Shown: positions 1 to 17,180, counted from the stretch's first letter. The stretch: DNA of 54,830 nucleotides from Candidatus Woesebacteria bacterium GW2011_GWB1_33_22 (GCA_000989765.1 LBOW01000011.1:1-54830); one strand, 5' to 3'. Translations and numbers: made by a program. The notes: generated by a model from the sequence alone, not told the origin.

Positions 1-38
1 GGGTGTTTGATTTTACCCCACACAAATTCACTTTTCAT
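1..38 (-). CDS. 5' end of an outward-reading ORF (MKSEFVWGKIKH..), cut by the window edge; function unknown
   Basis: AGGAG, 5-nt spacer, ATG at 38..36 on the minus strand. An identical copy starts at 54792 (+). Confidence 0.3.
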   Translation of the reverse strand, partial: MKSEFVWGKIKH

Positions 39-98
39 ACTAACTCCTGTTGAAATTGACATTATTCAATGTCGAATAAGTATCTGATCCTACACAAT
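1..98. repeat. Left arm of a perfect 98-bp inverted repeat (partner 54732..54829)
   Basis: Reverse complement of 1..98 equals 54732..54829 at every base. Identity stops at 99/54731. Confidence 0.95.
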
Positions 99-116
99 AA
101 CTGATTTTGAACACGA

Positions 117-1040
117 TTAACTGACGCTTGTCCCTGTATAGATTTTAGGTTCACTCCATGATGGCGGTATATCTTGTTGTATCTCTTCTTCTGCCTCTTC
201 AGGTGTCATTGAAGAAACATTTTCACTTTGTTTTAACTGTGGTTTTAAAGTACTTAATATTTGTACTTGGTTAAACGGTTTATTTGGTATAGCTCCTTGT
301 GGAAAAGAATTTGGTTGCACCTTAGTCATTCTAAGTCCGCCTAGTTTTAATAACTCTGTAAAAGTTTCAAATGTATTAACTGATACGTCAGTACTTTGAA
401 AGTTTTTACTCTCACTCTCAATCCCTGCTAATAAATTTGTAGCAATATCAGGATCAATTATGAAACCTCCTTCTTTAATTAAACCAGCAACAATTTCTGA
501 AGTCGAACTAGCTGCTTTTGCAAAAGAAAGTACTTGTAAATCTTTATTTTCAATTTCTAACAGTTTTGTGCCTAAATGAATTATTTTAGAACCTACAAAA
601 TCTGGATATTTTAATACTGGAAAATCAGATTCATCTGTACCACCAATTAAAATTATAAAGTCAGAGCCACCTCCAGCATAACTTACTTCAATTTGATCCT
701 GGTTTGGTGATTTAAACCCTGCTTTCGGGCTAACAGTTAGCTTAAACTGTCCATTCTCAATATCATAACTTACTTTATCTACATCAACGGCATTATAATT
801 AATAAACTTAATTGTCAAATTTTTATCTCCCAAATTAGAAGTTACTTTATCTACCCCAATTAGTCTTGAAAACTCGGTAGTCATCGGAGTAGAACAAGAG
901 ATAGTTACATTTTTACCTGAACTCAAGAGAGACAGATAAAGTGAAAGTCCGGCTGCAACCTTATCCAAATTTGGCTTTTGTGTGAGAAGAATTAAAACTT
1001 CCAAAGAAGAATCAATTAATGCTTTAAATGAGTTATCCAT
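117..1040 (-). CDS. DHH/DHHA1-like (NrnA-like) protein with unrecognisable catalytic motifs
   Basis: 307 aa directly downstream of infB, where nrnA-type genes often sit. The N-terminus (LILLTQKPNLDKVAAGLSLYLSL) resembles the DHH motif I/II region, but I cannot find the DHH and GGGH signatures. Confidence 0.35.
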   Translation of the reverse strand: MDNSFKALIDSSLEVLILLTQKPNLDKVAAGLSLYLSLLSSGKNVTISCSTPMTTEFSRLIGVDKVTSNLGDKNLTIKFINYNAVDVDKVSYDIENGQFKLTVSPKAGFKSPNQDQIEVSYAGGGSDFIILIGGTDESDFPVLKYPDFVGSKIIHLGTKLLEIENKDLQVLSFAKAASSTSEIVAGLIKEGGFIIDPDIATNLLAGIESESKNFQSTDVSVNTFETFTELLKLGGLRMTKVQPNSFPQGAIPNKPFNQVQILSTLKPQLKQSENVSSMTPEEAEEEIQQDIPPSWSEPKIYTGTSVS

Positions 1041-2439
1041 TTTTGCCTACGGCAATAATAACATCTCCTATTTGAAAATCAAGTTGAGGATGAAAAAATA
1101 TTCCAAATTCTTCTCCTTGAGAAACTCCTGATACTTCTTGTTTTTGTTTTTTAATTGAAGTTGCTGTAATTTTACCCAATTCAACATCCCCTCTCATTAG
1201 TCTTAAATCTGATGTCTTTTCAATCCTGCCCATTAAAACCTTTGATCCTGCAACTCTTTTTCCATTAAAAGGAAAACTTGTAACAATTTCAGCCTTACCT
1301 AAAGTTTCCCTTAAACCACTTCTAACTATTTCATCTAATCTTTGTAATAACTCATAGATGATATCAAATCTTTCAACCTTTACTTTATCCATCTCGGCTA
1401 ATTTTTTGACACTTCCAGGTATTTTACTTTCAAACACAAAAATCAAAGCATTGTTTGCTTTAGCGTTTAAAACATCTGATTCTGTAACATCTCCCACACT
1501 ACTTTCTAAAACTGCAAATTCTTGAGGAATGGAAGCAACTAATGCTTCTAATGACCCTGCACTATTGGCTTTTAAATAAAGTGGAATCTTAGTTTTGTCA
1601 ATCTGACGTTTTGGTGTAGAATCCATTGTCTCACTTGATACTTGATACTTGATACTTGATACTTGGCCTGTAACTAAAGCCCCAACTTCAGGTAAACTTT
1701 CAAACCCTAAAACTTTAGCGGGTTCTCCAGGTAAAATCTCCTTAACGGGCTTATTTTGATAATCAAAAAGTCCTTTTACTTTCCCTTTTGCCTTTTCACT
1801 AAATATTTCATCACCAATTTTTAATTTTCCGTTTCTTACGACTAAAGACACCATATTTCCACCTTTATCTTTATTTGTCTCAATGACAAAAGCTTCAAGA
1901 TCTGCATCAGAATCTGCTTCAATATTGTTCACATCTGCAAGTAGAGATATTAAATCTAATAAATCAGTAAGTTTTTCTTTTTTCTTAGCAGATACTCCAA
2001 TGTATGGAGTTTGTCCACCACGTCCTTCAAAATAAATTCCTTCTTTTTCAAGACCAGAAAGCGTCTCATCAACTGAAGCTGCTGGTAAATCAGTTTTCGT
2101 AATAACCACTATAAATGGGGTGCCTGCAGTATTAATGTGGGCAATTGCCTCTTTTGATTGAGGCTTAACTCCGTCTGAACCATCAACAATCAACAGGGCA
2201 ATGTCAGCAAGTTTGGACCCACGAGCTCTCATGCCTGAAAAAAGGGCATGGCCGGGAGTGTCTATGAAGGTGATCCTGTGACCATCTTTTGTGTTTACAA
2301 TAGAGGCTCCTATTGATTGGGTAATACCTCCCGCCTCTCCTGAAGTTACATTGGAGTTTCTTAAAGCATCAAGAAGTGAAGTCTTACCATGATCTACATG
2401 CCCAAGAACTGTTACTATTGGTTGTCTTTTTATTTTCAT
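1033..2439 (-). CDS. infB: Translation initiation factor IF-2 (short form starting at the G domain)
   Basis: G motifs GHVDHGKT, DTPGH and TKTD, followed by the beta-barrel and C-terminal domains. Sits in nusA-infB order. Confidence 0.92.
   Translation of the reverse strand: MKIKRQPIVTVLGHVDHGKTSLLDALRNSNVTSGEAGGITQSIGASIVNTKDGHRITFIDTPGHALFSGMRARGSKLADIALLIVDGSDGVKPQSKEAIAHINTAGTPFIVVITKTDLPAASVDETLSGLEKEGIYFEGRGGQTPYIGVSAKKKEKLTDLLDLISLLADVNNIEADSDADLEAFVIETNKDKGGNMVSLVVRNGKLKIGDEIFSEKAKGKVKGLFDYQNKPVKEILPGEPAKVLGFESLPEVGALVTGQVSSIKYQVSSETMDSTPKRQIDKTKIPLYLKANSAGSLEALVASIPQEFAVLESSVGDVTESDVLNAKANNALIFVFESKIPGSVKKLAEMDKVKVERFDIIYELLQRLDEIVRSGLRETLGKAEIVTSFPFNGKRVAGSKVLMGRIEKTSDLRLMRGDVELGKITATSIKKQKQEVSGVSQGEEFGIFFHPQLDFQIGDVIIAVGKNG
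1634..1666. repeat. Perfect heptamer array (CTTGATA) x4.7 inside infB
   Basis: cttgata repeated at 1634, 1641, 1648 and 1655, then cttgg. Encodes QVSSIKYQVSS on the minus strand. Confidence 0.95.
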
Positions 2440-2445
2440 AATTTC

Positions 2446-3438
2446 TCATGCTTGTGAATCTTCAATTATTTGTTCACTATTCCCAATAATTTCTATTTTA
2501 TACCCAGTTAATTTGCTAGCAAGCCTTACGTTTTGACCATCCTTACCAATTGCTAATGATAATTGGTCTTCAGGAGCTTTAACTTCAGCGGTTAATTCTT
2601 TTTTATTTAATTTAACTTCCAAGTTTTCTGCAGGAGCAAGAGCCAACTTAATCAACTCTGCATAATCTTCACCAAATGGAATAACATCTACTCTTTCTCC
2701 ACCAAGTTCGTTTGTAACTGCCTGAACTCGAACTCCTTTTTGGCCCACACAACTTCCTACAGGATCAACTCCACGACTTTCAGAATAAACTGCAATCTTG
2801 GTCCTGACTCCAGCTTCACGAGAGATTAACTTAATTTGAACTGATTTAGCTCCAATTTCGGGAACTTCACGAGCAAAAAGTTTAACTACAAAATCAGGAT
2901 CACTTCTGGAAAGAATTAATTCTTTTCCTTTAATTGTTTCTCTAATGTCTTTTAAGAGGAATGTTAATCTTTGTCCTTGAGATAATCTTTCGGTTGGAAT
3001 TCTTTCCTCCGCGGGCATGAATCCTTCTGTTCTACCCATGTCCACTCTAACATTAGAACCATCAAAGCGTAAAACTATACCTGAAACTAGTGACCCAACT
3101 TTTCCGCTAAACTCATCCATAATAACTCCCCTTTCAGCTTCCCTAATTTTTTGATGAATAACTTGTTTTGCAGTTTGAGCTGCAATTCTTCCAAAACCTG
3201 GGGGTGTTACATCTTTGCCATCTATTGATACTTTGGCTCCACCATCAAGGGAATTAATCTCAGCATCAAGAATAACTTCCTCACCATATTCAATACCAGC
3301 CTCTTTTTGATCACGCCTGAAAGCTGCAATTATTGCCTGCTTAATGGCATCAATTATTGTATTAGCATCAAGGCCTCTTTCTTGAACTATAGCCTTTAAA
3401 GCTTGACTAAATTCTGTTCTTGGTTGATTATTACTCAT
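2446..3438 (-). CDS. nusA: Transcription termination/antitermination factor NusA
   Basis: N-terminal domain, S1 domain (GSLVSGIVLRFDGSNVRVDMG) and two KH domains (VGSCVGQKGVRVQAV; LAIGKDGQNVRLASKLTG). Confidence 0.92.
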   Translation of the reverse strand: MSNNQPRTEFSQALKAIVQERGLDANTIIDAIKQAIIAAFRRDQKEAGIEYGEEVILDAEINSLDGGAKVSIDGKDVTPPGFGRIAAQTAKQVIHQKIREAERGVIMDEFSGKVGSLVSGIVLRFDGSNVRVDMGRTEGFMPAEERIPTERLSQGQRLTFLLKDIRETIKGKELILSRSDPDFVVKLFAREVPEIGAKSVQIKLISREAGVRTKIAVYSESRGVDPVGSCVGQKGVRVQAVTNELGGERVDVIPFGEDYAELIKLALAPAENLEVKLNKKELTAEVKAPEDQLSLAIGKDGQNVRLASKLTGYKIEIIGNSEQIIEDSQA

Positions 3439-3440
3439 AT

Positions 3441-3474
3441 TTTTAAAAAAATAGTGGGCCTTAAAATCCCACTA
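3441..3474 (-). terminator. Intrinsic-terminator-like hairpin plus U7 in the nusA leader
   Basis: Minus strand reads TAGTGGG-attttaagg-CCCACTA followed by TTTTTTT. The T-run ends 6 nt before the nusA ATG. Confidence 0.55.
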
Positions 3475-3481
3475 GTAATGA

Positions 3482-3510
3482 AGTTTACATTTATCTGAAG
3501 TTAAAATCAA
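3482..3510 (-). promoter_or_regulatory. Candidate sigma70-type promoter for the nusA leader
   Basis: Minus strand TTGATT-17 nt-TAAACT. The predicted start falls at the foot of the hairpin. Confidence 0.4.
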
Positions 3511-3519
3511 GGACAACCC

Positions 3520-3837
3520 TTATTTATTACTTGAGTCCAAAATCAGTTTAGTATTTCTTGTATCATTGGCTATTTGAAAAAATATTGCTGAAACTGGTTC
3601 TCCGTTATTTTTTTCTGAAAGTTTTAAGGCTACTGCCTCTTGAAAATCAGCTTTAACATCCAATCTCATTCTCGAAACATTTGCATCGTAATATAAGCCT
3701 AACAGATCTTTAACTGATTCTGCTTTTTCTAGCTTGTTACCTAATTCATGCCCAAAACTAAGAGCACTTTTTGATTCTTCTTTGTATCTAAATTCTACTA
3801 AATCTGGCTCTCCACCAATGTTTACCATATTATACAA
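3520..3837 (-). CDS. Hypothetical protein (about 102-105 aa)
   Basis: ORF only. The track start is a TTG; the first ATG is at 3828. No motif recognised, and it does not look like RimP. Confidence 0.4.
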   Translation of the reverse strand: MYNMVNIGGEPDLVEFRYKEESKSALSFGHELGNKLEKAESVKDLLGLYYDANVSRMRLDVKADFQEAVALKLSEKNNGEPVSAIFFQIANDTRNTKLILDSSNK

Positions 3838-3886
3838 GAGTATCCTCTCTCTCTCTGCCTGTCAAGAGGAATTATCAAAAATAAAT

Positions 3887-4150
3887 TTAAGCTGTTTGAA
3901 GTTTTTCCGTAAGCCAAATACGGGAGAGAGTGGAGACTGTTACACCTTTTTGCTTTGCAATTTTATTTAATTTCCTTTTTAAATCTTTTTGGATACGAAG
4001 GATTAAAGATTCAGTTTTTGGTTTATTTAAATTAACAACCAAATCTATATCTTTGAACTGATCCCAATAATCAGCCAAACTGTGGTTATCCCAAAAATTT
4101 ACCTCTTCTTCATAATTTTTAAAATTTGGTATTTTTTTTATTTTTGTCAT
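3887..4150 (-). CDS. brnA: BrnA/CopG-type antitoxin
   Basis: FWDNHSLADYWD motif plus a C-terminal ribbon-helix-helix-like LRIQKDLKRKLNKIAKQKGVTVSTL. Overlaps the upstream brnT by 4 nt. Confidence 0.7.
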   Translation of the reverse strand: MTKIKKIPNFKNYEEEVNFWDNHSLADYWDQFKDIDLVVNLNKPKTESLILRIQKDLKRKLNKIAKQKGVTVSTLSRIWLTEKLQTA

Positions 4151-4410
4151 ATCGTTAGTTTTCTTTCTTTTCTATCTGCTGACCTTGCAGTAACTATATA
4201 ATATTTCCCTTCAGTTTTTCTGTCTACAACTATTGAAATAAAATTACCTTTAAACTCGCAAATCAAAACAATTCTTGCTCTATAACCATATCTAAATGCT
4301 TTTATATTTAAAATTGCATTCTCAATAATCCTTTTTGTTAGTCCATGTTTTTTAACATGTTCAACATTCCAATCATTCCAAACTAAATTGTTAATTTCAA
4401 TTCTTGTCAT
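4147..4410 (-). CDS. brnT: BrnT (DUF497) ribonuclease toxin
   Basis: WNDWNVEHVKKHGL N-terminus typical of DUF497; 87 aa; paired with the antitoxin downstream. Confidence 0.7.
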   Translation of the reverse strand: MTRIEINNLVWNDWNVEHVKKHGLTKRIIENAILNIKAFRYGYRARIVLICEFKGNFISIVVDRKTEGKYYIVTARSADRKERKLTI

Positions 4411-4441
4411 ATTGTATTACAAATGTATTACAAAAGTCAAA

Positions 4442-5332
4442 TTATAATCCTTCTTCTTTCAAATCATCAATTATTCTTTTTTGTGTTCTTGTCATTTTTT
4501 CTGGGACTAAAATATTTAATTTCACATACTGATCTCCCTTTTGTCTATGATGTGGGTTTGGAGCACCTTTGCCTTTAAGTCTAATCATTGTTCCCGATCC
4601 CGTCCCTTCTCTTATTTTAATTTTAATTTCATCATCAATTGTTGGAACTTTAATTGTTCCACCCATTACTGCCATGGAATAAGGAATTGTGACATTTATA
4701 TAAATATCATCTCCATCTCTTTCAAAAAATTCATGTGGGGCGACATTAACTGACAAGGTAAAATCTCCAAAATTAATTTTTGTTCCTTCATCAACACCTG
4801 GAGGGATTTTAATTTTTCTGCGCGTACCTTCTATATCAAATTCTTTTTCAACCCCATTTACAGCTTCCATAAATTCCAAGCGTACAGAATATCTGGGAAT
4901 TTGCCTTTGTTGTCTAAATGGCGACCCGCCTCCGAAAAAGCTTTCAAAAATATCAAACGGATCTCCAAAATCTGCGTTTCCAAAAGGTGAACTGCTACCC
5001 GATGACCAAGTGTAAGTAAATGGTGCACCCTGAGCGGAGCCGAAGGGCCCTCCACCAGCAAACGGATTTCCTCCACCTCGAGATCCCATTCCACCAGGGG
5101 AAAATGCATCATGACCATAATTATCATATGCGCTCTTTTTAGAAGAGTCAGATAAAACTTGATAAGCTTCATTTATCTCCTTAAATTTTCTTTCAGCCTC
5201 TTCTTTATCAGTTCCTTGGTGTCTGTCAGGATGCCACTCAAGCGCTTTTTTGCGATAAGCATTTTTAATTTCTTGACCACTTGAGGTTTTTGTCACCCCC
5301 AGCAAATCATAATAATCGTTTTTAGTAGACAT
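4442..5332 (-). CDS. dnaJ: DnaJ-family co-chaperone without zinc-finger domain (class II / CbpA-like)
   Basis: J domain with HPD (EWHPDRH), a G/F-rich linker and C-terminal substrate-binding domains. No CxxCxGxG repeats. Confidence 0.85.
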   Translation of the reverse strand: MSTKNDYYDLLGVTKTSSGQEIKNAYRKKALEWHPDRHQGTDKEEAERKFKEINEAYQVLSDSSKKSAYDNYGHDAFSPGGMGSRGGGNPFAGGGPFGSAQGAPFTYTWSSGSSSPFGNADFGDPFDIFESFFGGGSPFRQQRQIPRYSVRLEFMEAVNGVEKEFDIEGTRRKIKIPPGVDEGTKINFGDFTLSVNVAPHEFFERDGDDIYINVTIPYSMAVMGGTIKVPTIDDEIKIKIREGTGSGTMIRLKGKGAPNPHHRQKGDQYVKLNILVPEKMTRTQKRIIDDLKEEGL

Positions 5333-5350
5333 TGGGTTATTTTACTCTAG

Positions 5351-5548
5351 CTAAAATAAATTTGGAAGCAACTTGTGTAACATATATCTTGTTTTATCCT
5401 CTATTGTATATCTTGGATAAGTTTCCATAAGCTTCTCATGGGTAATCGATCTATCTACTGCCCAATTTTTAATATTTTCTTGCCATAATTTTTGTGAAGG
5501 ATCTTCATTTACAATTATAAGTTTTTGGGGTGTCTGCTCTGTTGTCAT
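5351..5548 (-). CDS. Small hypothetical protein between dnaK and dnaJ
   Basis: 65 aa. Its ATG overlaps the dnaK TGA (ATGA). No motif recognised. Confidence 0.4.
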
Positions 5549-7485
5549 TCAACAACCTCCCCTTCTTCGACCCCTTCGGCTGGCTCAGGGCGAGCTTTTG
5601 CATCTGATTTTTTGTCTTTTGTTTCATTTGTCTTTTCCTCAGGCTTAGCTTCTGCTTCATTTTCATTTTTGACATTTGAATTTTGATTTTGGTTTCCATA
5701 CATTGCCTGTCCTACTTCAGACAAAGTTTCTGAAAGTTCTTTAGTTTTTGCCTCTAAATCTTCTTTTGAACCACTTTCAAGTATATCTTTTAAGGCTTTA
5801 ACTTTTTCTTCTACTTTTGCTTTTACATCTGCAGGAGCCTTATCGCCTGCGTCTTTCAAAGCTTTCTCTGCGGTTACAATCATTGCATCAGCATTGTTTT
5901 TAGATTTAATTATTTCTGCTTTCTTTTCGTCTTCTGCTTTATTCTTCTCCGCATCTTCCTGCGCCTTTTTAACTTCCTCATCTGTTAAGCCAACAGAACC
6001 TGTAATTTTAATGTTTTGAGTTTTTCCAGTTGCTTTGTCTTTTGCAGTAACGGTTAAAATGCCATTGGCATCCAAATCAAACATGACTTCAATTTGGGGA
6101 ACACCTCTTGGGGCAGGAGGAATGCCATCCAATACAAATCTTCCAAGAGCTTTATTGTCATTACTTAAAGGCCTTTCGCCTTGAGTAATATGAATTTCAA
6201 CTTGTGTCTGATTATCGGCAGCAGTTGAAAACACTTCTGTCTTACTTGTAGGTACTGTTGTATTTCTTGGAATCATTGGTGTAGCTACCCCTCCCATTGT
6301 TTCAATTGCCAAGGTCAGAGGTGTTACATCCAAAAGTAAAATATCTTTAACATCTCCCGCCAAAACTCCTGCTTGAATAGCAGCACCTACTGCAACAACC
6401 TCGTCAGGATTTACAGACTTATTTGGTTCTTTGCCAAAAAATTTCTTAACCTCTTCAACAACTTTTGGCATTCTGGTCATGCCACCAACCATAATAACCT
6501 CGTTAATGTCCCCAGCTTTTAATCCTGCATCTTTAAGACAAGCTTCCACCGGTTTAATTGTCTTTTGAATAAGTTCATCTACAATTGACTCTAATTTTGC
6601 TCTTGTTATCTTCATCGTCAAGTGAATCGGTTGGCCGTCTTTTTGAGTTATATAAGGTTGGTTTATTTCAACTTCATCTGCTGCTGATAATTCTATCTTT
6701 GCTTTTTCTGCAGCATCACGAACGCGCTGTAATGCCTGTTTATCAAGCCTTAAATCCATTGAATTTTCTTTTTTGAATTCTTCTGCTATAAAATCAACTA
6801 TCTTTTCGTCAAAATCATCTCCTCCAAGGTGTGTATCTCCGTTTGTTGCCTTGACTTCAAATACCCCGTCTCCTAATTCCAAAATCGAAATATCAAATGT
6901 TCCACCACCTAGGTCATAAACAGCAATTTTCTCAGCTTTTTTCTTGTCTAATCCATAAGCCAAAGCTGCGGCGGTTGGTTCATTAATTATTCTTTCAACC
7001 TTTAGCCCTGCAATTTCTCCTGCTTGCTTGGTTGCCTGTCTTTGAGAATCATCAAAATAGGCAGGGACTGTAATAACTGCTCTATCTACAGATTCTCCCA
7101 AATACTTTTCCGCATCTTTTTTAAGTTTCATTAAAACGCGAGCGCTAATTTCTTGAGGGGTATAAGTTTTACCATCAATTTCAACATCAGCCATTCCCGA
7201 CTTTCCTGAAACAATCTTGTAGGAAACCATTTTTTGAGTTCTAGTTACTTCTTTATCTTCAAACCTTCTACCCATTAACCTTTTAACTGAAGATATTGTA
7301 TTTACTGCATTTAAAATCATCTGTCTTTTAGCCACATCTCCAACAAGGTTTTTGGCAAGTTCTACAACCGATGGGGTTGTATTTTTACCAGTATCAGAGG
7401 CACTAATAACCTTGGGGCTTCCGCCTTCCATTACTGCTACACAGCTATTTGTTGTTCCTAAATCAATACCGATTATTTTTGACAT
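5545..7485 (-). CDS. dnaK: Molecular chaperone DnaK (Hsp70)
   Basis: [22 protein letters not shown] and the rest of the Hsp70 architecture are present across the full length. Confidence 0.98.
5566..5594. repeat. GC-rich mini-element related to the 20-mer at 34500/50582
   Basis: ttcgaccccttcggctggctcagggcgag shares TTCGAC and GCTCAGGGCRAG with the 20-mer. Encodes ARPEPAEGV in the DnaK tail. Confidence 0.6.
5658..5692. repeat. Degenerate period-7 array in the dnaK 3' tail
   Basis: cattttc atttttg acatttg aattttg attttgg. Encodes [12 protein letters not shown]. Confidence 0.6.
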
Positions 7486-7486
7486 A

Positions 7487-7939
7487 TTATTTTGTTTTCG
7501 CTACTTTCACTCTTGCATGTCTTACTACTGTTCCATCAGAATATTTCCATCCTGGCATAACTACTTCTGAAACATTATTATTATCTTTTTCTTCTAAAGT
7601 TTCAATGGTCTCTATAACTTCACTTGTTGCTTCATCAAATTTATCCCCTACATTAATTTTTATTTCTTCAAATCCTTCCTCATGGGCCAATGTTTCAAGT
7701 TGCCCAATAATCATTGCTATCCCAGAATCTTTAATATGATTCTGTGCACTTTTTAAATTATCAATAATTGGTAATATCTTTGACATGAATGAAACACTTG
7801 CGAGTTTAAACATTTCAACTCTTTCCTCATCAGTTCTTTTTTGTAAATTTGCATAATCAGCCATTGCTCTTGCTAATTGTTCTTTCAGAACAATTTGGCC
7901 GTTAGCTATTGGCTGTTGGCTATTAGCTTTCTTTTTCAT
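7487..7939 (-). CDS. grpE: Nucleotide exchange factor GrpE (short, 150 aa)
   Basis: Lies between hrcA and dnaK. Coiled-coil N-terminal half and a GrpE-like C-terminus ([20 protein letters not shown]). Confidence 0.85.
7901..7928. repeat. Degenerate heptamer array in grpE (same family as 32291..32325)
   Basis: gttagct attggct gttggct attagct. Encodes ANSQQPIAN. Confidence 0.85.
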
Positions 7940-8658
7940 AGCATTATTTCCTCTAACATGTTCCTATAATACCTAATTGTTGGGACAAGGCTTGAATAAG
8001 ACTGTCTAACTGGTCCAATTACACCCAGTGCTCCGTTTTTGTCTTTTACTTTAAAGTGTGCAGCAACAATGCCTACAGGCATATTTCTAAAACCCATATC
8101 TTCTGTAAATAATACATCAAATGGAGTTTCTATTGGGAAACGATTGAAAAATAGGTCAATTAATTGCTCATCCTCATCCATAAAATCAAAAAGTAATGCG
8201 CAAGCCCTGATGTCCCCGAATTCGGGATATGAAAATATATTAGCATGTCCTGCCTGCCAAACAGACCCGTCGTTAGTCATTGTAATCGCCATTCCGCCAG
8301 TTTGGTCAGCTAAAGAATGGGTCATCTCATTTACAAACTTATCAAAGTTACCCCTGTCATCCCAGACTTCTTCCTTGGCTTTAACTTCATCAGCCAAACT
8401 CATTTGTTTTTCTTCCATAAGTTGATCTACATAAAATTTCATTGCTCCTGAGGTTGGAACTCTTCCTGCTGAAGTATGAGGTTGTTTTAAAAATCCACTC
8501 TTTGTCAAATTAGCCATTTCATTTCTAATAGTTGCGGGGGATACACCAAGATTATATTTTTTCTCTAAAGCATCGGAGCCTACAGGTTCTGCTGTTTCAA
8601 TATACTCATCAATTAATGCCTTTAAAATTTGTGTCTGTCTCGATGTTAGTGCGTTCAT
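7936..8658 (-). CDS. hrcA: Heat-inducible repressor HrcA (short, 240 aa)
   Basis: N-terminal wHTH (LTSRQTQILKALIDEYIETAEPVGSDAL ... HTSAGRVPT). First gene of the operon, with a CIRCE element upstream. Confidence 0.85.
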   Translation of the reverse strand: MNALTSRQTQILKALIDEYIETAEPVGSDALEKKYNLGVSPATIRNEMANLTKSGFLKQPHTSAGRVPTSGAMKFYVDQLMEEKQMSLADEVKAKEEVWDDRGNFDKFVNEMTHSLADQTGGMAITMTNDGSVWQAGHANIFSYPEFGDIRACALLFDFMDEDEQLIDLFFNRFPIETPFDVLFTEDMGFRNMPVGIVAAHFKVKDKNGALGVIGPVRQSYSSLVPTIRYYRNMLEEIML

Positions 8659-8685
8659 CTGGCACTATCATAATATGAGTGCTAA
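8659..8685 (-). promoter_or_regulatory. CIRCE operator
   Basis: Minus strand TTAGCACTC-atattatga-TAGTGCCAG. The left arm is perfect and the right arm matches 6/9 of TTAGCACTC-N9-GAGTGCTAA. It abuts the hrcA ATG. Confidence 0.8.
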
Positions 8686-8695
8686 GCGTTGTCAA
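8667..8695 (-). promoter_or_regulatory. hrcA operon promoter overlapping CIRCE
   Basis: Minus strand TTGACA-17 nt-TATGAT, with the -10 box 8 nt from the ATG. Confidence 0.6.
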
Positions 8696-8698
8696 GGT

Positions 8699-9097
8699 CT
8701 ATTTTGAATATAATTTAATTTCTGGAATCCTAGAAAAGTGTTTAATATTTTTTGTCATTAATACCAAATTGTTTACGATTGCGGTTGCACCAATAATTAG
8801 ATCAAAATCTTCAAGTCTTGATCCTTTTTTCTCTAATTCTATTTTTAAATCAATAAATTTGCCTGCGATTTTTAAATCAATCTCTAGTATTTTTATATTT
8901 AAGTCAATAATAAAATTAGTAAATTGTTTTGTTGCCTTAATCGAATTTTTTAATTTTCTTATCCCATAAATTATTTCAGACCAATTAATAATACTTATAA
9001 ATAAATCTTCTTTTGATTTACTTATAATTGTAGAAAGATAATCATCTTTATTATTTAAATGATTAATGATTACATCACTATCTAAAAGTAATCCCAT
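8699..9097 (-). CDS. vapC: PIN-domain toxin (VapC-like)
   Basis: 132 aa with an LLLDSDVIINHL N-terminus. Lies immediately downstream of a small antitoxin gene. Confidence 0.7.
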   Translation of the reverse strand: MGLLLDSDVIINHLNNKDDYLSTIISKSKEDLFISIINWSEIIYGIRKLKNSIKATKQFTNFIIDLNIKILEIDLKIAGKFIDLKIELEKKGSRLEDFDLIIGATAIVNNLVLMTKNIKHFSRIPEIKLYSK

Positions 9098-9098
9098 T

Positions 9099-9371
9099 TT
9101 AGTTTATTATTTTAAAATTTTTTCTAAAAGATTTAGTTGATTTTACAATTTCTTTGCTGATATCAACATTCCAAACACCCGCATATTTATCCATTATTTC
9201 AGACCTAGATAGTGTTTTTTTTATTGGATTTGTTATTTTGATCATTTTTATCATAGGTTTACCCATTTTTTCCACAACTATTTCATAATTATTGTAATAA
9301 GTTAAATTAATAAGTTCACTAAAGTTCTTTCTAGCCTCAAATACAGACATTGTTTTTAACATTTTTAACAT
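9099..9371 (-). CDS. Phd/YefM-type antitoxin (start uncertain: 9371, 9362 or 9350)
   Basis: MSVFEARKNFSELI is a Phd/YefM-like N-terminus. The longer track ORF (to 9398) would translate the TGTACA operator repeats. Confidence 0.6.
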   Translation of the reverse strand: MLKMLKTMSVFEARKNFSELINLTYYNNYEIVVEKMGKPMIKMIKITNPIKKTLSRSEIMDKYAGVWNVDISKEIVKSTKSFRKNFKIIN

Positions 9372-9372
9372 A

Positions 9373-9409
9373 CTGTACAGATTGTACAGCCTGTACATGT
9401 CGGTGTCAA
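9373..9409 (-). promoter_or_regulatory. TA promoter with three TGTACA palindromes
   Basis: Minus strand TTGACA-17 nt-TACAAT. TGTACA occurs at 9374, 9383 and 9392 (9-bp phasing). Confidence 0.6.
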
Positions 9410-9419
9410 GAGAGAGATT

Positions 9420-12101
9420 TTACCAACACCACCAAAGGAAACAATGTTCTCGCCCCGCGGAGCCTTGGCGAAGTGGGGTTGGGGAAGGAATAAATGTAGG
9501 CAATGGTGTTACTAATGCTCCAAGAACAGGAGAAGGTGTGGAAATAATTGGCTTAGTAATTTTTAAATTGAACTCTGGTAATTCTGTATAGTCATTGTTT
9601 TTATTGGTGGCAAAAATGTTTACATTGTATGTCCCCACCGATAACTTGTCTGTAAAACTAACTTTAAATCTTGATGTAGAATCAACTGTAGCTTCCTTAG
9701 AAACAAGGGTTATGTTGTTTTGAGAAAGTTGTACTGTTACTTTAGAACCTACTGTTGAAATTCCTGTAAATGTTGGTATTTGGTTAACTACTTTCTTGGT
9801 TAAAAGAACCAAAGGAAACCACTCACCTGAGAAGTTGGCTGTGTGGGTGTTGATTCTTAAAATTTTAGGATCAGAATCAGTACTGTTTCCATTTTGATCA
9901 AAAGCGCGAACCTTCCATTTGTATGCTCCACCTGCAAGTTTATCTATCTCCCTCTTGGCATACACTGATATTTCATTGCCTGAATAACTTACAAACCTTT
10001 CTGTTTGATCAAGTGTTGTTCCACTAACACCTTCTACGATGCTTGTTATGTATGGATAATAATCTTTACCCTCAGGTTTAATAAATATCTCATATGAAGA
10101 TATGCCAGCTGTAGCATCAGAAGACTTTGAAAAAGTAAAAGCAGGTAAACTATCAGTTGTAAATATATTATCCCCCCCACTACTATTAGACTTGGCAGGA
10201 TTAATAATATCTGACCTTGTGGCATCATACTCAAATATCTTAATATCGTCTATGTACCAACCATCCCTACGATTATTAGTATTTGCATATGGGTAAAGAG
10301 AACTTAGTAAAAACCTTAATTTTATATGTTGGGTTGCGTAGACACTTAGATCGATTTCCTCTTTTGTCCAATTTACCAATTTTCCGCTATAAACAGGACT
10401 TGTTCCATATAGATAAGCCTCACCGCCATTTGTATAATTGCCAGGAAGAGAAGTCCAATTAGAACCGTTATCGATTGAGATTTGAATTTCAGCAATATCA
10501 AAATAACTGTAAAGGTCATATTTTGTCCAAAAAGAAAGTTTTGGATTTGTGTAACCAGAAAGACTGATATTGTTCGTTGTGGTCAGAGACGAGTTAAGCG
10601 GATGGTCATAGTCGCCCAAAATACTATCCGTACATGAACTGGATGATGAATGGTAGGCAGAAGTTGTTGTCTGCCAAACAATTGAGGTAACCGATGAAGT
10701 TGTCCAGTTACTCAAATTGTCGCAGGAGTCTGAAAATATTATTTCAGGTGTAGCCACATAGTAAGTAATGCTTTTGGTTGAGAGTGTTGAGTCTCCTGAT
10801 TTAATTGTTAAAGTAAAGTCCATTTGTGTACCAAGTGGAGCCGTTTCAGATACAGTAAATGAGAAAGAGTCGTTAACTGTTTGACTGGTTTGACTATCAA
10901 GAGCACTGATTGTTTCACTACCATCATTAATGGTTACATATGAACTTGTGGTAGTTAATGTTGCAACCACAGAATCCATATTTCCTCTTCCTTTGTTTTT
11001 GGCAACAATTGACATTAATACTGTTTCTCCAGGATCCATGTATTCTTGGTTAGTTGAATATGAAGAGATGTCTGTGTAGCCCCCTGCTACAAAAGCAATA
11101 TATTTATTTGGGAAAAGATTTTCAGAAACTACAACGTCTATACGTGACTGTATTGGCCAAAAACTGGAATCAGCCCCCACTTCAGGTAGAAAAGAAAAAA
11201 TATTGCCGTTGTTGGCAATAACATCGCCATCATACATATAGTCAAGAACATCGCCCCGAATAGCGTATGTCAAGTTTTGAATAGTTAATCCTGTTACATA
11301 GTTATTCCCAGAAACCATATCGATAGCCCATTCTTCAAAAATGTTCCCATCAGAGGTTTGAGATTGCGAAGCTGTATAAGGGTAGGGCATGTCACCTCCG
11401 TAAGTATGGTAGTTAAAAGCTGTTTTGATTTGGTGGGAGGAGAGAAAATCACGTATTGCTTGTGTTTCTGGTTCAGAAAAAGGGGCTGTTCCACGGTAAT
11501 CACTCGCGCTGGTGGTTGTGCTTGATCCGCTATTATTGTAGTTCCAGTAGGCCTGTGGTCCAAAGTTGCGGTTGAGGTCTACTCCGTAAGTTCCATTACC
11601 ATTGTTTTTTCTATTCTTTCTCCAATTCCCTCCCCCTGAGGGGTTTGTTGTTTGGTTGTAGTAGTAGCCATCAGGATTAACAACAGGCAGAAAGTACATT
11701 TCTCTGTTATCAACCAAATATTTTGCAGTTGAATCGGTATTATAGTTTTCAAGAAGGTAATACATGAAGTAAATTGTTACCTCCATTCCCATTGGTTCTC
11801 TTGCGTGAGTTAGAGCGTTGTAAAATACCTCTGGCTCACTTTCATCACTTCCCGGGTTATCTGAAATCTTAACTATATAAATAGGTCTTCCTTCTACAGT
11901 TGTTCCTATCTGTTCCTTAGCTGTAATGAGGTTAGGATACTTAGTATGCATATTATCCAGCTGGTCATACACTTCACTTAATGTGTAATATCCACCCATG
12001 GAACCATATCCAAAATCTGTAGCTAGTGCAGAAGAAGGAAACAACAACAAAAAAAGAAGAAATATAGGCAGGAAAGAAAAAACTATTTTTATAATTTTCA
12101 T
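9420..12101 (-). CDS. Secreted M14 zinc carboxypeptidase with large C-terminal beta-rich domains
   Basis: Signal peptide, HAREPMG (HxxE), VVNPDGY, WRKNRK and GVDLNRNF. About 550 aa of Ser/Thr-rich beta-domain sequence follow. Confidence 0.85.
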   Translation of the reverse strand: MKIIKIVFSFLPIFLLFLLLFPSSALATDFGYGSMGGYYTLSEVYDQLDNMHTKYPNLITAKEQIGTTVEGRPIYIVKISDNPGSDESEPEVFYNALTHAREPMGMEVTIYFMYYLLENYNTDSTAKYLVDNREMYFLPVVNPDGYYYNQTTNPSGGGNWRKNRKNNGNGTYGVDLNRNFGPQAYWNYNNSGSSTTTSASDYRGTAPFSEPETQAIRDFLSSHQIKTAFNYHTYGGDMPYPYTASQSQTSDGNIFEEWAIDMVSGNNYVTGLTIQNLTYAIRGDVLDYMYDGDVIANNGNIFSFLPEVGADSSFWPIQSRIDVVVSENLFPNKYIAFVAGGYTDISSYSTNQEYMDPGETVLMSIVAKNKGRGNMDSVVATLTTTSSYVTINDGSETISALDSQTSQTVNDSFSFTVSETAPLGTQMDFTLTIKSGDSTLSTKSITYYVATPEIIFSDSCDNLSNWTTSSVTSIVWQTTTSAYHSSSSSCTDSILGDYDHPLNSSLTTTNNISLSGYTNPKLSFWTKYDLYSYFDIAEIQISIDNGSNWTSLPGNYTNGGEAYLYGTSPVYSGKLVNWTKEEIDLSVYATQHIKLRFLLSSLYPYANTNNRRDGWYIDDIKIFEYDATRSDIINPAKSNSSGGDNIFTTDSLPAFTFSKSSDATAGISSYEIFIKPEGKDYYPYITSIVEGVSGTTLDQTERFVSYSGNEISVYAKREIDKLAGGAYKWKVRAFDQNGNSTDSDPKILRINTHTANFSGEWFPLVLLTKKVVNQIPTFTGISTVGSKVTVQLSQNNITLVSKEATVDSTSRFKVSFTDKLSVGTYNVNIFATNKNNDYTELPEFNLKITKPIISTPSPVLGALVTPLPTFIPSPTPLRQGSAGREHCFLWWCW
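9452..9480. repeat. GC-rich mini-element, copy 1 (partner 37069..37098)
   Basis: gccccgcggagc-cttg-gcgaagtggggtt, compared with gccccgcgaagc-ttcat-gcgaagtggggtt. Confidence 0.85.
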
Positions 12102-13153
12102 TTCCCAATGCTTTTAATTATGTTTTTAAAAAAATCAATAATTGTATTAATAATAGTTTGTTTTTGGGTAGTTTCTTGATTAACTATTTCTGTACTTATT
12201 TTTGGTGTTTGGGCAGGAACAGGTGATGGTTCGTCAGTAGTTGTTCCTAATACGGCTTTTGGGGTAGTAGAATCAACAGAAACAAGTGTGTAATACCCAC
12301 CAAGTTTGGTAATGGCTGCTACTGTTTTGTTTTTGGTATCAATTACAGAGTTAGAAAGTATCTTCCAAATCTTGCCGTCTAAAGAATATGCAATTTTTAA
12401 ATTTTTGTAAGTTCCAGTATACGACAAACTAACAATTGATGGTTTTTTCTGTAAATCTTGAGTAATTTTAACTGGTGTGTATCCTGCTGGAGCATATGCC
12501 TTGTACCAGATTTCTTGGATACTACCTATTTTAGTATAGTTTCCATTGTAAATGATGTTACTTACTTGTGAAGAAAGAAAGGCATTAAAATTAAAAGTTT
12601 GGGGTGGAATGATTACAACCACCTTTTGTTCCCCTTGATTAGAATCTTTAGTAGGTGTTAGAACAGTTTCTGTGGTTGTTGTATTTAACACTTCTTGTTT
12701 TACTTGGTAGGTTTCAGGGGTAGTAGAACCTGTTTCTTCCCTAGTATTCATTTCAAAGGTGGAGGTTGCTCCATACAAAGTGCTGGGCATATAAAGATCA
12801 TTCTGATCATGGGTTCTGACATATACCTTCCTTCCGCTTCCTTCATCCATTGATCCAAATTCACAACTGAAAGCTTCAGAGGTGGAATCAAAACTACCAT
12901 CTGTTGGGGTACAGTCAGTCCAGCTACCGGGAACTGTGTTGCTTCCACTCCACTCAACTCCTGAAATTGAATAGTCACTGTTGGTATCTGTTGCTGTTCC
13001 TGTGAGGGTAGTACTACTTCCCGCTCCAAAGTAACTGGCTACTGAGTTTAAACTAACAGTTGGTGTTCCATGTGAGATTTCGTAGTAGTTGACAACTGGG
13101 TCACCAGTTCCACTTGAAGAGGTTCCACCTTGCAACACATTAATATTGGCCAA
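12098..13153 (-). CDS. Secreted beta-rich domain protein; probably the frameshifted C-terminal part of the FG-GAP gene
   Basis: Has only a TTG start and overlaps the upstream ORF by 106 nt in another frame. Its ATGA overlap with the M14 gene suggests one operon. Confidence 0.5.
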   Translation of the reverse strand: MANINVLQGGTSSSGTGDPVVNYYEISHGTPTVSLNSVASYFGAGSSTTLTGTATDTNSDYSISGVEWSGSNTVPGSWTDCTPTDGSFDSTSEAFSCEFGSMDEGSGRKVYVRTHDQNDLYMPSTLYGATSTFEMNTREETGSTTPETYQVKQEVLNTTTTETVLTPTKDSNQGEQKVVVIIPPQTFNFNAFLSSQVSNIIYNGNYTKIGSIQEIWYKAYAPAGYTPVKITQDLQKKPSIVSLSYTGTYKNLKIAYSLDGKIWKILSNSVIDTKNKTVAAITKLGGYYTLVSVDSTTPKAVLGTTTDEPSPVPAQTPKISTEIVNQETTQKQTIINTIIDFFKNIIKSIGK

Positions 13154-14535
13154 CCATCATAATCCCAGTCAAAAGCAGATACTGAGTTACCATATGCTGT
13201 ATTTCCTGAAGTTTTTACTTCACTAAACCACGGTGAATCCGCAAATGTCCCAGCAGTATTTTTGTAAATGAAGAATTTACCATGACGGGAACCTGAAGCT
13301 ACATTATTCTGGTAAGCTCCTACTAACAAATCCGGCTTCCCGTCATTGGTAACATCATACAAAAAAGTGGTTCTTCCAAAATTATCGTTCGAGGCCTGAC
13401 CATTTAAAATAATATCCGCTACTGTTACTGAATATGAAGAGTCAAAACTGCTTCTACCAAAAAAACAATATACACGTCCTTGATTTGTGGCTACAGTGTC
13501 ATTACTATATGCCCCAGCACAAAAATCATCTAAACCATCAGAATTGATATCGGCTGTAGAAGTTGAGCGATTTCTACCGAGAAGGTCTGTGGTTGTTTCT
13601 GCATTAAAAACGCTAGTTTGCGAAAAACCTCCCAAGTTCGACCCGTTAAACAAGAATAACTTTCCATTTTGAGAATTATCTATTGATAATAAATCATCAA
13701 CATTATCTCCATTTGAATCACCCGTTCCTATTGTCCAAAAATCCAACCCAAAAGTGTTTGTTCCTGTTGTACTCAAAGTAAAACTTGGATTATTATAGTC
13801 GAAGGTGTTATTTGTGTTTAAAAAGGTATATATCTTAGAACTAGTAGATGAAGTGGCTGTGCCCGCAACAACGATGACATCATTATTATTATCGTTATTA
13901 ACATCTAAAATTTTTACACCAATCCCGAAATTTTTATTATTGGTTAAGTTCCCTAAAGCTGAAAGGTCGGCAACCGATGCGGCCAAGTCACCAGATAAGG
14001 TTGCACTTCCATAAAAAACATAAATTTTACCCGCCAGGCTACCAGCTTCGTCGTTTCCGTATGCTCCCGCCAAAATATCGTTATATCCATCTCCATTTAT
14101 ATCACCAACCGCAAAAGAATTTCCCAAATCACCACCTGAGAACGAATCAGAATTAGTTTCACCAGTTATTGTAATATCAGCACTTGAACTAAAACCTGTC
14201 CCATTTCCAAAATATACATAAATTCTTCCCTTCGAAGACGAATATTGAGAGTTGCCAATAAGCATATCGTCATACCCATCCCCATTGATATCACTATATT
14301 GCGGGTAGAACCCAAAAAAAGTTCCGTTTGTAAGGGTTCCCTCTGCCGTCATACCAGGCGCGACAAAAGCATAAACTGAGGAATTAGGAATTAGGAAAAA
14401 AGAAATTAGGAAAAATGTAAAAACGGAAAGAATTTTTACAAAACGGTGGCGGAAACTACTCTCTCTCTCTCTCGTAAACACATTGGTTTTGTGAGTATTC
14501 TTTGCATACATTTTATTATACTTACATTTAATCAT
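13048..14535 (-). CDS. FG-GAP/VCBS-repeat (integrin-alpha-like) secreted protein
   Basis: Repeated DINGDGYDD/GDxNGDGxxD motifs followed by G-x-Y-V-F-G patterns. N-terminal hydrophobic signal. Confidence 0.75.
   Translation of the reverse strand: MIKCKYNKMYAKNTHKTNVFTRERESSFRHRFVKILSVFTFFLISFFLIPNSSVYAFVAPGMTAEGTLTNGTFFGFYPQYSDINGDGYDDMLIGNSQYSSSKGRIYVYFGNGTGFSSSADITITGETNSDSFSGGDLGNSFAVGDINGDGYNDILAGAYGNDEAGSLAGKIYVFYGSATLSGDLAASVADLSALGNLTNNKNFGIGVKILDVNNDNNNDVIVVAGTATSSTSSKIYTFLNTNNTFDYNNPSFTLSTTGTNTFGLDFWTIGTGDSNGDNVDDLLSIDNSQNGKLFLFNGSNLGGFSQTSVFNAETTTDLLGRNRSTSTADINSDGLDDFCAGAYSNDTVATNQGRVYCFFGRSSFDSSYSVTVADIILNGQASNDNFGRTTFLYDVTNDGKPDLLVGAYQNNVASGSRHGKFFIYKNTAGTFADSPWFSEVKTSGNTAYGNSVSAFDWDYDGWPILMCCKVEPLQVELVTQLSTTTKSHMEHQLLV
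14381..14416. repeat. Degenerate period-7 array in the signal-peptide region
   Basis: gaattag gaattag gaaaaaa gaaattag gaaaaat. Confidence 0.5.
14459..14473. repeat. (CT)7.5 dinucleotide tract in the 5' coding region of the FG-GAP gene
   Basis: ctctctctctctctc; encodes RERE on the minus strand. Confidence 0.9.
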
Positions 14536-14640
14536 TAATTGATTTTGAAGTCAAAAGCCTTTTGCATTGATTTCCAACTGTAAATAGTTATTCTATTTGT
14601 GTCCAAATTGTCAATCCCATTGCCAACTTGTCCTATTTAA

Positions 14641-16317
14641 TTAATCTAGCCTTTCTACCTCTGTTGTAAACTTTTGCCCTTGGAGCATTCGTTTAAATAA
14701 ATTTACAAAAGTTTCAAGTTCAGTTGATTTAAGTATTTTTAATATAAACACATAGATTAAACAGCCTATTAAACCAACTATAATCGTCAGTGCAAGTAAG
14801 TTACCAGCATATCGAGTATCTAGAACAAATTTTTCAAATGGTAGATCAACATTTGCAATGAATGAAAGCTTTTTGACCCAAACTGATTTGTCAAAAAACT
14901 TTAAAATGAAAAACATTACTCCACCCGAGACAAAACCTGAAAAAAGAGATTTTAATATTGGCAAATAAAGTAAAGTTTTTGCCCCATCGTGAATTCTTTT
15001 GGTAATAACTACAAAAAGAATTACAGATTGGATTATGGCAGATAATGAGAATGCAAAAGCAAGTCCCCATACAGGAAACTTATAAATAATTACCAAAAGA
15101 TAATCGAGGATGATGTTAAAAATCAAAATAACTACTGAAATCTTGACAGGTGTCTTAGTGTCATGCATTGCGTAAAAGGCACGAGCTAAAATTGAATTTG
15201 CCGCTTGTGAAAAAATTCCAATTGCAAAAGCAGAAATTACTAGCGAAGTTTCAACTGTTGAATCCCATGTAAAAATATCTGTTCCAAAAATAAGACGGAC
15301 AATGGGGATTCTGGCAACCATTAAAAAGGCAACAATTGGGGTCATTAAAAATACAATTTGATTTAAAGTCTCAAATAAGGTCTTTTTAAACGCAGGTAAG
15401 TCGTCTGCTTGACGAGCCAGTGTCGGAAGGGCTGCCTTAGCAATTGACGTTCCAAAAAGTCCAACAGGTAAAAGCTGTACTGTATTACCAAAGGTAAAAT
15501 ATGTATAAGCTGGAGCTGAAATTAACGAAGCTAGAGTTAATTCAACAAATTTGGCAACTTGCAAAAATGATACTTCAATTATTCTAGGAATTGAAAGTTT
15601 GGCAATTCTTCTAACTTCTGGTGTAATTTTTAAGCTTTTGGAAAACTTAAACCCCAATTTAATGGCAAGTGGCAATTGAATTAAAAAATGTAACGCTGAA
15701 CCTATTAAAACTCCTATAACTGGGGCAAATAAACCCAATTGTTTGGAAAAAATAATAGTTGTAATAATTATTCCTAAGTTATAAAAAAGAGGAGCTAAAG
15801 CAGGCACAAAAAAACGCTTGGAAGATTCTAAAACTGCAGTTAAAACATAAGAGATTACAAAAAAACCCTGTGCAATAAATAAAACTCTTGCCAAGTCAGC
15901 AATTCTAGTTTGATCTGAAAAGGTAAAACCTGGAGTAATTACTCTATAGAGAGGGTGTGCAAAAATAACAACAAGGCTTGCAAGTATTAGAAAGAATATT
16001 CCTCCCCAGTTAGCTATAATTCCTGCTGTTTGCCAGGCTTTAAATTTGGACGATTTCAAAGTTTTTGTGAAAATTGGTATAAAAGCTGAAGCAAATGTCC
16101 CAAAAACCAAAACTTCAAAAACTGTATCTGGAAGTCTAAAGGCTGCAAAAAAAAGACTTAAATCGCTTGAGACAAAATAATGAGCCAAAACCCTTTGTCG
16201 AATTAACCCCAACAATCTTGAAGCAACAATCATTATCATTATCAAACTTGCAGCAGAAAGAACAGAGTGTTGTTGGCCAGAAACAAGTGATTTGAGTTTT
16301 GCAATTGTTAATTTCAT
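14641..16317 (-). CDS. murJ: Lipid II flippase MurJ/MviN
   Basis: 558 aa polytopic protein. N-terminus ASRLLGLIRQRVLAHYF ... FRLPDTVFEVL is typical of MurJ. Confidence 0.85.
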   Translation of the reverse strand: MKLTIAKLKSLVSGQQHSVLSAASLIMIMIVASRLLGLIRQRVLAHYFVSSDLSLFFAAFRLPDTVFEVLVFGTFASAFIPIFTKTLKSSKFKAWQTAGIIANWGGIFFLILASLVVIFAHPLYRVITPGFTFSDQTRIADLARVLFIAQGFFVISYVLTAVLESSKRFFVPALAPLFYNLGIIITTIIFSKQLGLFAPVIGVLIGSALHFLIQLPLAIKLGFKFSKSLKITPEVRRIAKLSIPRIIEVSFLQVAKFVELTLASLISAPAYTYFTFGNTVQLLPVGLFGTSIAKAALPTLARQADDLPAFKKTLFETLNQIVFLMTPIVAFLMVARIPIVRLIFGTDIFTWDSTVETSLVISAFAIGIFSQAANSILARAFYAMHDTKTPVKISVVILIFNIILDYLLVIIYKFPVWGLAFAFSLSAIIQSVILFVVITKRIHDGAKTLLYLPILKSLFSGFVSGGVMFFILKFFDKSVWVKKLSFIANVDLPFEKFVLDTRYAGNLLALTIIVGLIGCLIYVFILKILKSTELETFVNLFKRMLQGQKFTTEVERLD

Positions 16318-16339
16318 TTTTTTTGATTATACTACCAGC

Positions 16340-16570
16340 ATGCCAGTAACAAAAACAGCCAAAAGAGCTCTTCGAGGGTCAGTGAAAAAGCAATCTGTTA
16401 ATAAAATTGCCCTAACAAGGCTTGAAGTTGCCATTAAGAAAGCAAAAACTACTAAATCCAAAAAGGATATTGAAAAAGCCTTTTCACTTACTGATAAAAC
16501 GGCTAAAATAAAGGCAATCCACAAAAATAAATCCGCCAGGATTAAATCTCAGTTATCAAAAATTAAATAA
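16340..16570 (+). CDS. rpsT: 30S ribosomal protein S20
   Basis: MPVTKTAKRALRGSVKKQ...; 76 aa and basic. The start at 16340 is preferred over the track start 16292, which overlaps murJ. Confidence 0.85.
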   Translation: MPVTKTAKRALRGSVKKQSVNKIALTRLEVAIKKAKTTKSKKDIEKAFSLTDKTAKIKAIHKNKSARIKSQLSKIK

Positions 16571-16609
16571 TCTTCTCTACTGCATTTTCATATGCTATGA
16601 TCTTATTGT

Positions 16610-17179: not shown

Positions 17180-17180
17180 T

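Follow-up and report, generated by a model that had tools for sequence, protein, structure and literature searches.

Identical peptide in GrpE and a FemX-like protein of a Woesebacteria genome is a probable by-product of 7-base tandem repeats

The peptide ANSQQPIA, which is encoded both in the grpE gene and in a FemX-like gene of a 54,830-nucleotide stretch of Candidatus Woesebacteria DNA (the whole of which is referred to here as the window), is a by-product of 7-base tandem repeats rather than one inserted element or a functional motif. We consider it probable that the two arrays have independent origins and belong to a class of 7-nt SSRs, of ~4-5 units each, that is spread through the lineage and arises and turns over locally within genes. 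The abundance of these arrays, their many different units, their recurrence at permissive sites with different units, and the mostly 7-aa steps in length at the FemX loop were all observed directly. The original prediction, which read the shared peptide as evidence for insertion or selection in a translatable orientation rather than independent slippage, is partly supported. The window organism is a CPR bacterium of groundwater-type samples.

The grpE array (7894-7928, minus strand) encodes part of the N-terminal tail and reads AGCTAAT AGCCAAC AGCCAAT AGCTAAC plus a decayed fifth unit, GGCCAAA; the four units are the reverse complement of window positions 7901-7928 and occupy codons 5-13, right after the start codon. 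Its host gene (7487-7939, minus strand) encodes a 150-aa GrpE (Pfam GrpE, E = 4.6e-24) in an hrcA-grpE-dnaK operon context, with the Pfam domain beginning at residue 18, preceded by the array tail. The second array (32284-32325, plus strand) corresponds to a surface loop and reads (AATCAAA) AGCTAAT AGCTAAT AGTCAAC AGCCAAT (TGCCACT), with the four units at 32291-32318; the end originally placed at 32325 takes in the fifth, decayed unit TGCCACT, although the four units stop at 32318. The host is a FemAB-family peptidyltransferase gene (31741-32673, plus strand; 310 aa; Pfam FemAB, E = 1.7e-25). The sequence confirmed that both arrays are of the AGYYAAY type on the sense strand and that each encodes ANSQQPIA, in stretches of 24 nt at 7904-7927 (grpE) and 32299-32322 (FemX gene) that show 3 differences, all at synonymous third positions. 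The arrays use the same consensus unit and are alike at 23/28 nt in the peptide register, and their best DNA alignment is shifted by one unit relative to the peptide alignment. Over the whole window, a degenerate 21-nt motif gave 7 overlapping matches, all at these two arrays, against 0.09 expected, and the 24-nt coding pattern gave 2 exact matches against 0 expected. ANSQQPIA is the sole 8-mer common to two different proteins of the window, while 3% of residue-shuffled proteomes contain any shared 8-mer. Directly 3′ of the FemAB-family gene and overlapping its end lies an ORF (32646-33509) that had no Pfam match at the default threshold, and we suspect a divergent Fem-like paralogue.

Because 7 and 3 share no factor, the units of a sense-strand heptamer array pass through all codon phases and encode a cyclic 7-residue peptide that does not depend on frame. 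The three frames of (AGCCAAC)n give SQQPTAN, ANSQQPT, and PTANSQQ, which are one cyclic peptide, and AGYCAAY units give (A/V)NSQQ(P/S)(I/T). ANSQQPIA is found in both proteins because the two arrays happen to use the same common unit. The frame shared by the two arrays, which had been offered as evidence, is uninformative since all sense frames give the same cyclic peptide; taken literally the statement is also weak, as codon position 3 is where the first grpE unit begins, whereas the first FemX unit begins at position 2 and the second at 3. That unit position 4 switches between T and C follows from the coding as well, because AGC-TAA would stop and the phase that reads YAA must therefore be CAA. 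The predicted translatable (sense) orientation of both arrays is borne out, and selection for translatability is evident across 88 in-gene arrays: when the consensus units are read cyclically, 19% contain a stop in the sense direction and 55% in the antisense direction, compared to 51% of random heptamers. Sense strands of the arrays are 41% A, 22% C, and 11% G, and their peptides are rich in S, K, N, P, Q, and T, where the antisense would give L, F, W, and C plus stops. Since the depletion of stops is restricted to the sense strand, orientation is explained by selection on an orientation-blind process.

To place the two arrays in context, period-7 arrays were counted with a lag-match window requiring at least 16 of 21 lag matches; Tandem Repeats Finder likewise reported many period-7 arrays besides these two. 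The window holds 15-17 of them (17 in the lag-match census at this threshold) compared to 0.2 in dinucleotide-preserving shuffles, an excess of ~80-fold. Periods 6, 9, and 12, which are those expected in coding DNA, yielded 4, 5, and 10 arrays, respectively, and periods 5, 8, 10, and 11 yielded 0-1. The same census found 0 period-7 arrays in each of the 50-kb controls from phage T4, pXO1, and E. coli, the first two having a GC content of 0.33-0.34, like the window. The arrays are head-to-tail 7-nt copies, more frequent than composition predicts, as in heptanucleotide SSRs. All but one lie inside ORFs, with units that differ among sites, and by Pfam boundaries they fall in N- or C-terminal tails and inter-domain linkers.

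A perfect AGTATCA x4.7 array (1627-1671, minus strand) lies in an inter-domain linker of IF-2, where it encodes QVSSIKYQVSS; in the loci analysed, 13 orthologue matches were obtained, and each lacks 3-6 aa over this stretch. The C-terminal tail of DnaK has a weak period-7 tract (5668-5695, minus strand). Near protein N-termini are a CCTAATT array in an FG-GAP repeat protein (14375-14409, minus strand) and an AGTGATC / AGTCAAC / AGTGAAC array in a hypothetical protein (21751-21783, plus strand; DQSTVISEQ). One PMT-family glycosyltransferase gene holds both an AGNTTCT array (23661-23705, minus strand) and an AGCTATC array (25485-25521, minus strand; ISYQLSAISL). An AGTTCAC-type array (37748-37775, minus strand) lies in an inter-domain linker of a ComM/Mg-chelatase-like ATPase, and an AddA-like helicase-nuclease has two adjacent arrays, ARTCACY and CAATTNN (40068-40159, minus strand), in the linker from UvrD_C to PD-(D/E)XK and an AGTWAAC array at 41145-41174 (minus strand; VNSKQLTD). 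A GAAATTY array (48018-48057, plus strand) encodes NSKFEILNSKFE at the C-terminus of a hypothetical protein, and an ACGCTAT array (49766-49801, minus strand) lies in the gene of an NAD-dependent epimerase/dehydratase. The intergenic array, CTAGNNN at 49011-49052 (no strand assigned), overlaps the stop codons of both convergent genes. CTAG-based arrays (CTAGNNN x4-6) were seen at gene ends over stop codons at this site and also at positions 17565-17589 of related locus L015 and 10017-10041 of L082; since CTAG has TAG on both strands and the period is 7 nt, such an array stops translation in all frames and both directions.

Repeats of other kinds also occur in the window. A perfect 66-nt tandem duplication (19567-19698; 2 copies, 100%) lies in an ORF at 19285-20295, and a hexamer tract of ~16 ACAGCA/ACAGCT units (22723-22819) lies in an ORF at 22534-23076; neither ORF had a Pfam match. 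A UvrD/PcrA-like helicase gene (29997-31737) is split into two overlapping ORFs (29997-30428; 30388-31737). Comparison with orthologues shows that the gene has lost a net 29 nt near 30384, and with them the conserved ASILYAISEA segment, and that its reading frame is changed; the split gene is either a pseudogene or an assembly error. A single-unit slip as the cause of the split was rejected, the 29-nt deletion being unrelated to repeats.

The same class of repeats extends across the lineage. Homologues of GrpE and the FemX-like protein came from sources named Candidatus Woesebacteria, Microgenomates, and Patescibacteria, and 80 related genome loci (1.48 Mb; L-numbers below) contained 86 period-7 arrays compared to 3 after shuffling. 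Period 7 ranked top among periods 4-15 in these loci, where periods 6, 9, and 12 gave 33, 16, and 42 arrays, respectively. Counting the 80 loci and the window together, 88 of 95 arrays (93%) lie inside ORFs, at a coding fraction of 0.95. A tail of perfect runs was seen for period 7 alone; it extends to ~4.8 copies, and five full perfect copies were never reached. Other pairs with the same peptide exist: IKYQVSS occurs in the window IF-2 and in an L077 gene, and two genes of L041, a Woesebacteria genome (9547-9580 and 14427-14457), both give ATSYKLP from GCTACMA arrays. Arrays of the AGYCAAC type were found elsewhere in L007 (12890), L016 (7402), L021 (6229), and the grpE gene of L086.

The 4.3-kb contig L023 has six heptamer arrays, by far the densest seen, at 14 per 10 kb. 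In loci L014-L075, at ~14-16 kb on the minus strand, arrays of differing units (including TTCCAAA, TAAAATT, TTCGAAA, and AAACTCA) occupy what is apparently one orthologous site, and all its peptides resemble W-V-N-S-K-F-x-I-x-N-S-K-L-S; it looks like a second site with persisting arrays and changing units, like the FemX loop. Distant GrpE loci (33-38% identity to the window GrpE) have AT-rich, AATTAAW-like period-7 arrays immediately 3′ of grpE (L116 10423, L132 5518, L144 10429, L115 2317, L124 445, and L129 2980).

The original prediction had proposed to examine whether orthologues lack the insert, and close orthologues of both GrpE and FemX do lack the peptide. GrpE is hypervariable ahead of the conserved core, from the start codon onwards. 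Many relatives at 80-84% identity (aligned core, tail excluded) begin without the tail (MKKKNEDMKNQL), and other tails read VNSQPSTVNS or IVNSQQSTAKA, the product of (AGTCAAC)n. At the same site, the L086 GrpE (72% identical) has AGCCAAT CGTCAAC AGTCAAC AGTCAAC AGCTAAG. Most FemX orthologues read WKHL-KDK-IAHLL or L-KKAG-IAHLL, and a scattered subset is longer at exactly this loop. Because the GrpE array is common to relatives at 72-77% identity, whereas the FemX proteins nearest to that of the window (83% and 78% identity) have no array, the two arrays appear, from sequence comparison, to differ in age.

The longer FemX loops are built from unrelated units: AGTCAAA x4 in L007, CACCAAT x5 in L011, CACCGAW x4 in L019, AAAACTC x4 in L036, L003, and L030, AACAAAG x4 in L035, GAACCAY x4 in L064, and AAGCCAT x4 in L032. 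The units of the sisters L011 and L019 differ by one substitution that is repeated in every unit, which marks homogenisation within arrays. Relative to an array-bearing orthologue, loop lengths cluster at 0 (~21 sequences), -7 aa (28), and -8 aa (13). A 7-aa step equals 21 nt, or three units; in the window's own clade the step is 8 aa. We dropped "+7 aa" as a general rule, the clean step being confined to the FemX loop and swamped at other sites by generally length-variable linkers. Long and short loops are interspersed on the FemX tree, with the window sister to the short-loop L001 and L003 sister to L004; this tree was made rapidly by neighbour joining after masking of the loop and has no support values, which leaves the number of independent gains and losses uncertain.

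AlphaFold modelling of the FemX-like protein (mean pLDDT 87) places residues 183-193 in a coil between a helix (171-182) and a strand (194-201), and mean pLDDT is 67 for residues 181-190, between neighbours of 96 (171-180) and 93 (191-200). Staphylococcal FemX (6snr) and FemA (1lrz) have ~70 extra residues at exactly the point of the FemX array, the structure alignment pairing query 178 with chain residue 217 and query 193 with 291. The N-terminal segment of E. coli GrpE is unstructured. The tails, linkers, and surface loops in which arrays are found are thus predicted to be permissive sites.

A common source would have supplied both genes with the same preformed AGYYAAY array, through a tiny mobile element or ectopic gene conversion, with the copy kept only where it could be translated. 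This proposal draws on the shared consensus unit and the 23/28 identity, on the recurrence of AGYCAAC-type arrays in other genes and genomes, and on the TGA present in the antisense of AGTCAAC-type units, by which only sense insertions could survive. However, comparison of the flanks over 80 nt either side gave 20/80 and 18/80 identical positions (25% and 22%), which is the random level, and neither terminal repeats nor target duplications were found at the two arrays. The ~15 arrays of the window use many unrelated units, and orthologous sites such as the FemX loop have different units across genomes. Among 137 in-gene arrays, units were identical in 0.9% of same-genome pairs and in 0.5% of different-genome pairs with non-homologous hosts, and unit distance was <=1 in 4.6% of pairs within genomes and 3.7% between genomes; for the 90 pairs in the window this predicts 0.45-0.8 identical-unit pairs, and 1 was seen. 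We therefore found neither the defined ends or flank similarity nor the greater within-genome likeness that mark a mobile element or cassette; the ~1.8 Mb sampled already lean towards there being no surplus of identical arrays within a genome and no conserved array boundaries. A genome-specific template or ectopic conversion was rejected, unit sharing being equal within and between genomes. Together with the apparent difference in age of the two arrays, these results contradict the part of the original prediction that favoured insertion over independent slippage, and a common source seems improbable. We are still less inclined to accept a selected functional peptide, according to which ANSQQPI-like segments were kept in both proteins for a role as linker, binding motif, or modification site. 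The segments are hydrophilic, disorder-prone, and exposed, and similar 7-aa periodic peptides, such as WVNSKFxIxNSKLS, do recur at orthologous sites. Yet close orthologues of GrpE and FemX dispense with the segment entirely, the solved Fem structures lack it at this point, and it is not a conserved motif of GrpE or Fem transferases; a conserved functional peptide in both families was an outcome that the original prediction had named as speaking against its own interpretation. The 3 synonymous differences in 24 nt are too few sites to show constraint. Because the sequence is replaced wholesale between genomes while the 7-nt periodicity of the DNA stays, a DNA-level process is indicated rather than peptide conservation, and a selected peptide is very unlikely.

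In-gene non-triplet units, often near the N-terminus, are also the classic signature of phase-variable contingency loci (background in PMC4692102), in which single-unit frameshifts would switch genes on and off. The hosts here are housekeeping genes (grpE, infB, dnaK, and helicases), and every array in the ~1.8 Mb sampled is in frame within an intact ORF. The sole frameshifted gene of the window was broken by the 29-nt deletion away from repeats. No copy-number or length variants were found at arrays in assembled contigs of four source-sample runs (window 1-20000), which is a weak test; contigs break off at the perfect IF-2 array, which is what a 33-nt repeat should cause when 31-mers are used. 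Phase variation is accordingly a highly doubtful account of these arrays. Pure coincidence between two low-complexity stretches, with no underlying process, could appeal to the shared 8-mers found in 3% of residue-shuffled proteomes, but both stretches are clear 7-nt arrays and belong to a class with 17 members in the window against 0.2 in shuffles that is absent from all three controls. An explanation by coincidence alone is scarcely credible.

Local amplification of heptamers within genes remains the preferred reading. Under this model, amplification in a 7-nt register, by a mechanism such as the polymerase slippage or reiterative copying put forward for bacterial heptamer repeats, would add or remove units, and the only changes to survive in genes would be those that preserve the frame by coming in threes, introduce no stop in any phase, and yield hydrophilic peptides that a dispensable loop can tolerate. 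The preference for ~four units could then represent one native unit and three added ones. Some points stand against the model in its simplest form. Classical slippage of one unit at a time would shift the frame of essential genes such as grpE and infB, so that gain of three units in one step, or rare multi-unit events, must be assumed, and ordinary slippage would not expand a unit present in just one native copy. A bolder version, which we regard as rather unlikely, invokes a dedicated or unusually active 7-nt-register process in Woesebacteria, and perhaps in CPR, that would write ~three extra copies of a local heptamer per step and, by acting again and again at the same permissive loops, would generate and refresh short disordered linkers in otherwise minimal, highly conserved proteins. 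If this were true, the 7-nt register together with the four-unit preference of Xanthomonas and Nostoc would point to a shared enzymatic cause.

These results bear on the annotation of CPR genomes. When unrelated CPR proteins have a short peptide in common, it need not mean shared domains, horizontal transfer, or motifs, as heptamer arrays can be its source, and many length differences at loops and tails of CPR orthologues may stem from heptamer arrays. Arrays in the essential genes of a streamlined genome are also a place where selection leaves a readable record in the form of frame-preserving sets, stop-free orientations, hydrophilic peptides, and repeatedly hit sites. The mutational process and its role in new protein linkers are testable by population sequencing of groundwater CPR. 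The ANSQQPIA coincidence is ordinary given this background; pervasive in-frame arrays turning over at permissive loops of essential CPR proteins are apparently undescribed, a literature search having brought up no paper on such heptamers in the genes of CPR bacteria.

Tandem repeats with partly similar properties are known from other bacteria and from Borgs. Cyanobacterial STRRs are mainly intergenic and longer and come from a different phylum. Their unit, which we take to be CAACAGT, is a rotation of the AGTCAAC found in the FemX array, the GrpE-orthologue array, and the array at 21751, a match that may be coincidental. The existence of such heptanucleotide repeats in Calothrix PCC 7601 is cited in PMC4692102. 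The TAACTGA repeats found in marine Beggiatoaceae, in cyanobacteria, and in Bacteroidetes (MacGregor 2015, PMC4679880) follow the same coding logic as here and are the exact precedent for one peptide in unrelated ORFs: the orientation with stops in all frames is kept out of genes, and the other one, TCAGTTA, encodes LSVISYQ in each of 11 otherwise unrelated ORFs, usually near the edges of the proteins. The window units AGCTATC and AGTATCA are close to AGTTATC, a rotation in that system. However, the TAACTGA system has one favoured unit, mostly just 5′ of start codons, with suggested regulator binding (PMC4679880), whereas the present arrays have many units, nearly all in genes, with no favoured position relative to starts. 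With units that differ and 93% of arrays inside ORFs, they do not belong to the TAACTGA repeats.

The tandem repeats of Borgs (Schoelmerich et al. 2023, PMC9879509) are likewise fast-evolving, lie in ORFs, add hydrophilic disordered segments, occupy the same places in homologues, are A-rich, and have partial repeats at their flanks. Their in-gene units are always divisible by three and produce perfect amino-acid repeats, in contrast to the 7-nt unit described here, for which frame is kept only through sets of three units, and which separates these arrays from the Borg type. In Xanthomonas and Nostoc, GGGNATC arrays (Rehm et al. 2015, PMC4692102) are similarly dispersed and show a marked preference for ~four units, which was reported in intergenic arrays too; they are G-rich, quadruplex-capable, intergenic, and under-represented in coding DNA, whereas the arrays of this lineage are intragenic with 11% G on the sense strand.

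A close match is with bacterial heptanucleotide SSRs in general. As summarised in PMC4679880 and PMC4692102, Mrazek et al. (2007) found that heptanucleotide repeats outnumber every other class of long SSR in most bacterial genomes and proposed polymerase slippage, which according to the summary in PMC4679880 would be favoured by a polymerase contact of ~7 nt. As far as these summaries of Mrazek, Guo & Shah 2007 go, both sets consist of direct 7-nt tandems with many units per genome beyond chance, period 7 is prominent among non-triplet periods, and a slippage-type origin has been proposed. The repeats summarised there come mainly from large, often GC-rich genomes (Burkholderia, Xanthomonas, cyanobacteria, and actinobacteria), with non-triplet units mostly outside genes, whereas here the genome is a small CPR genome of 33% GC and 93% of arrays lie in genes and in frame. 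The arrays of the window are a coding-region variant of bacterial heptanucleotide SSRs.
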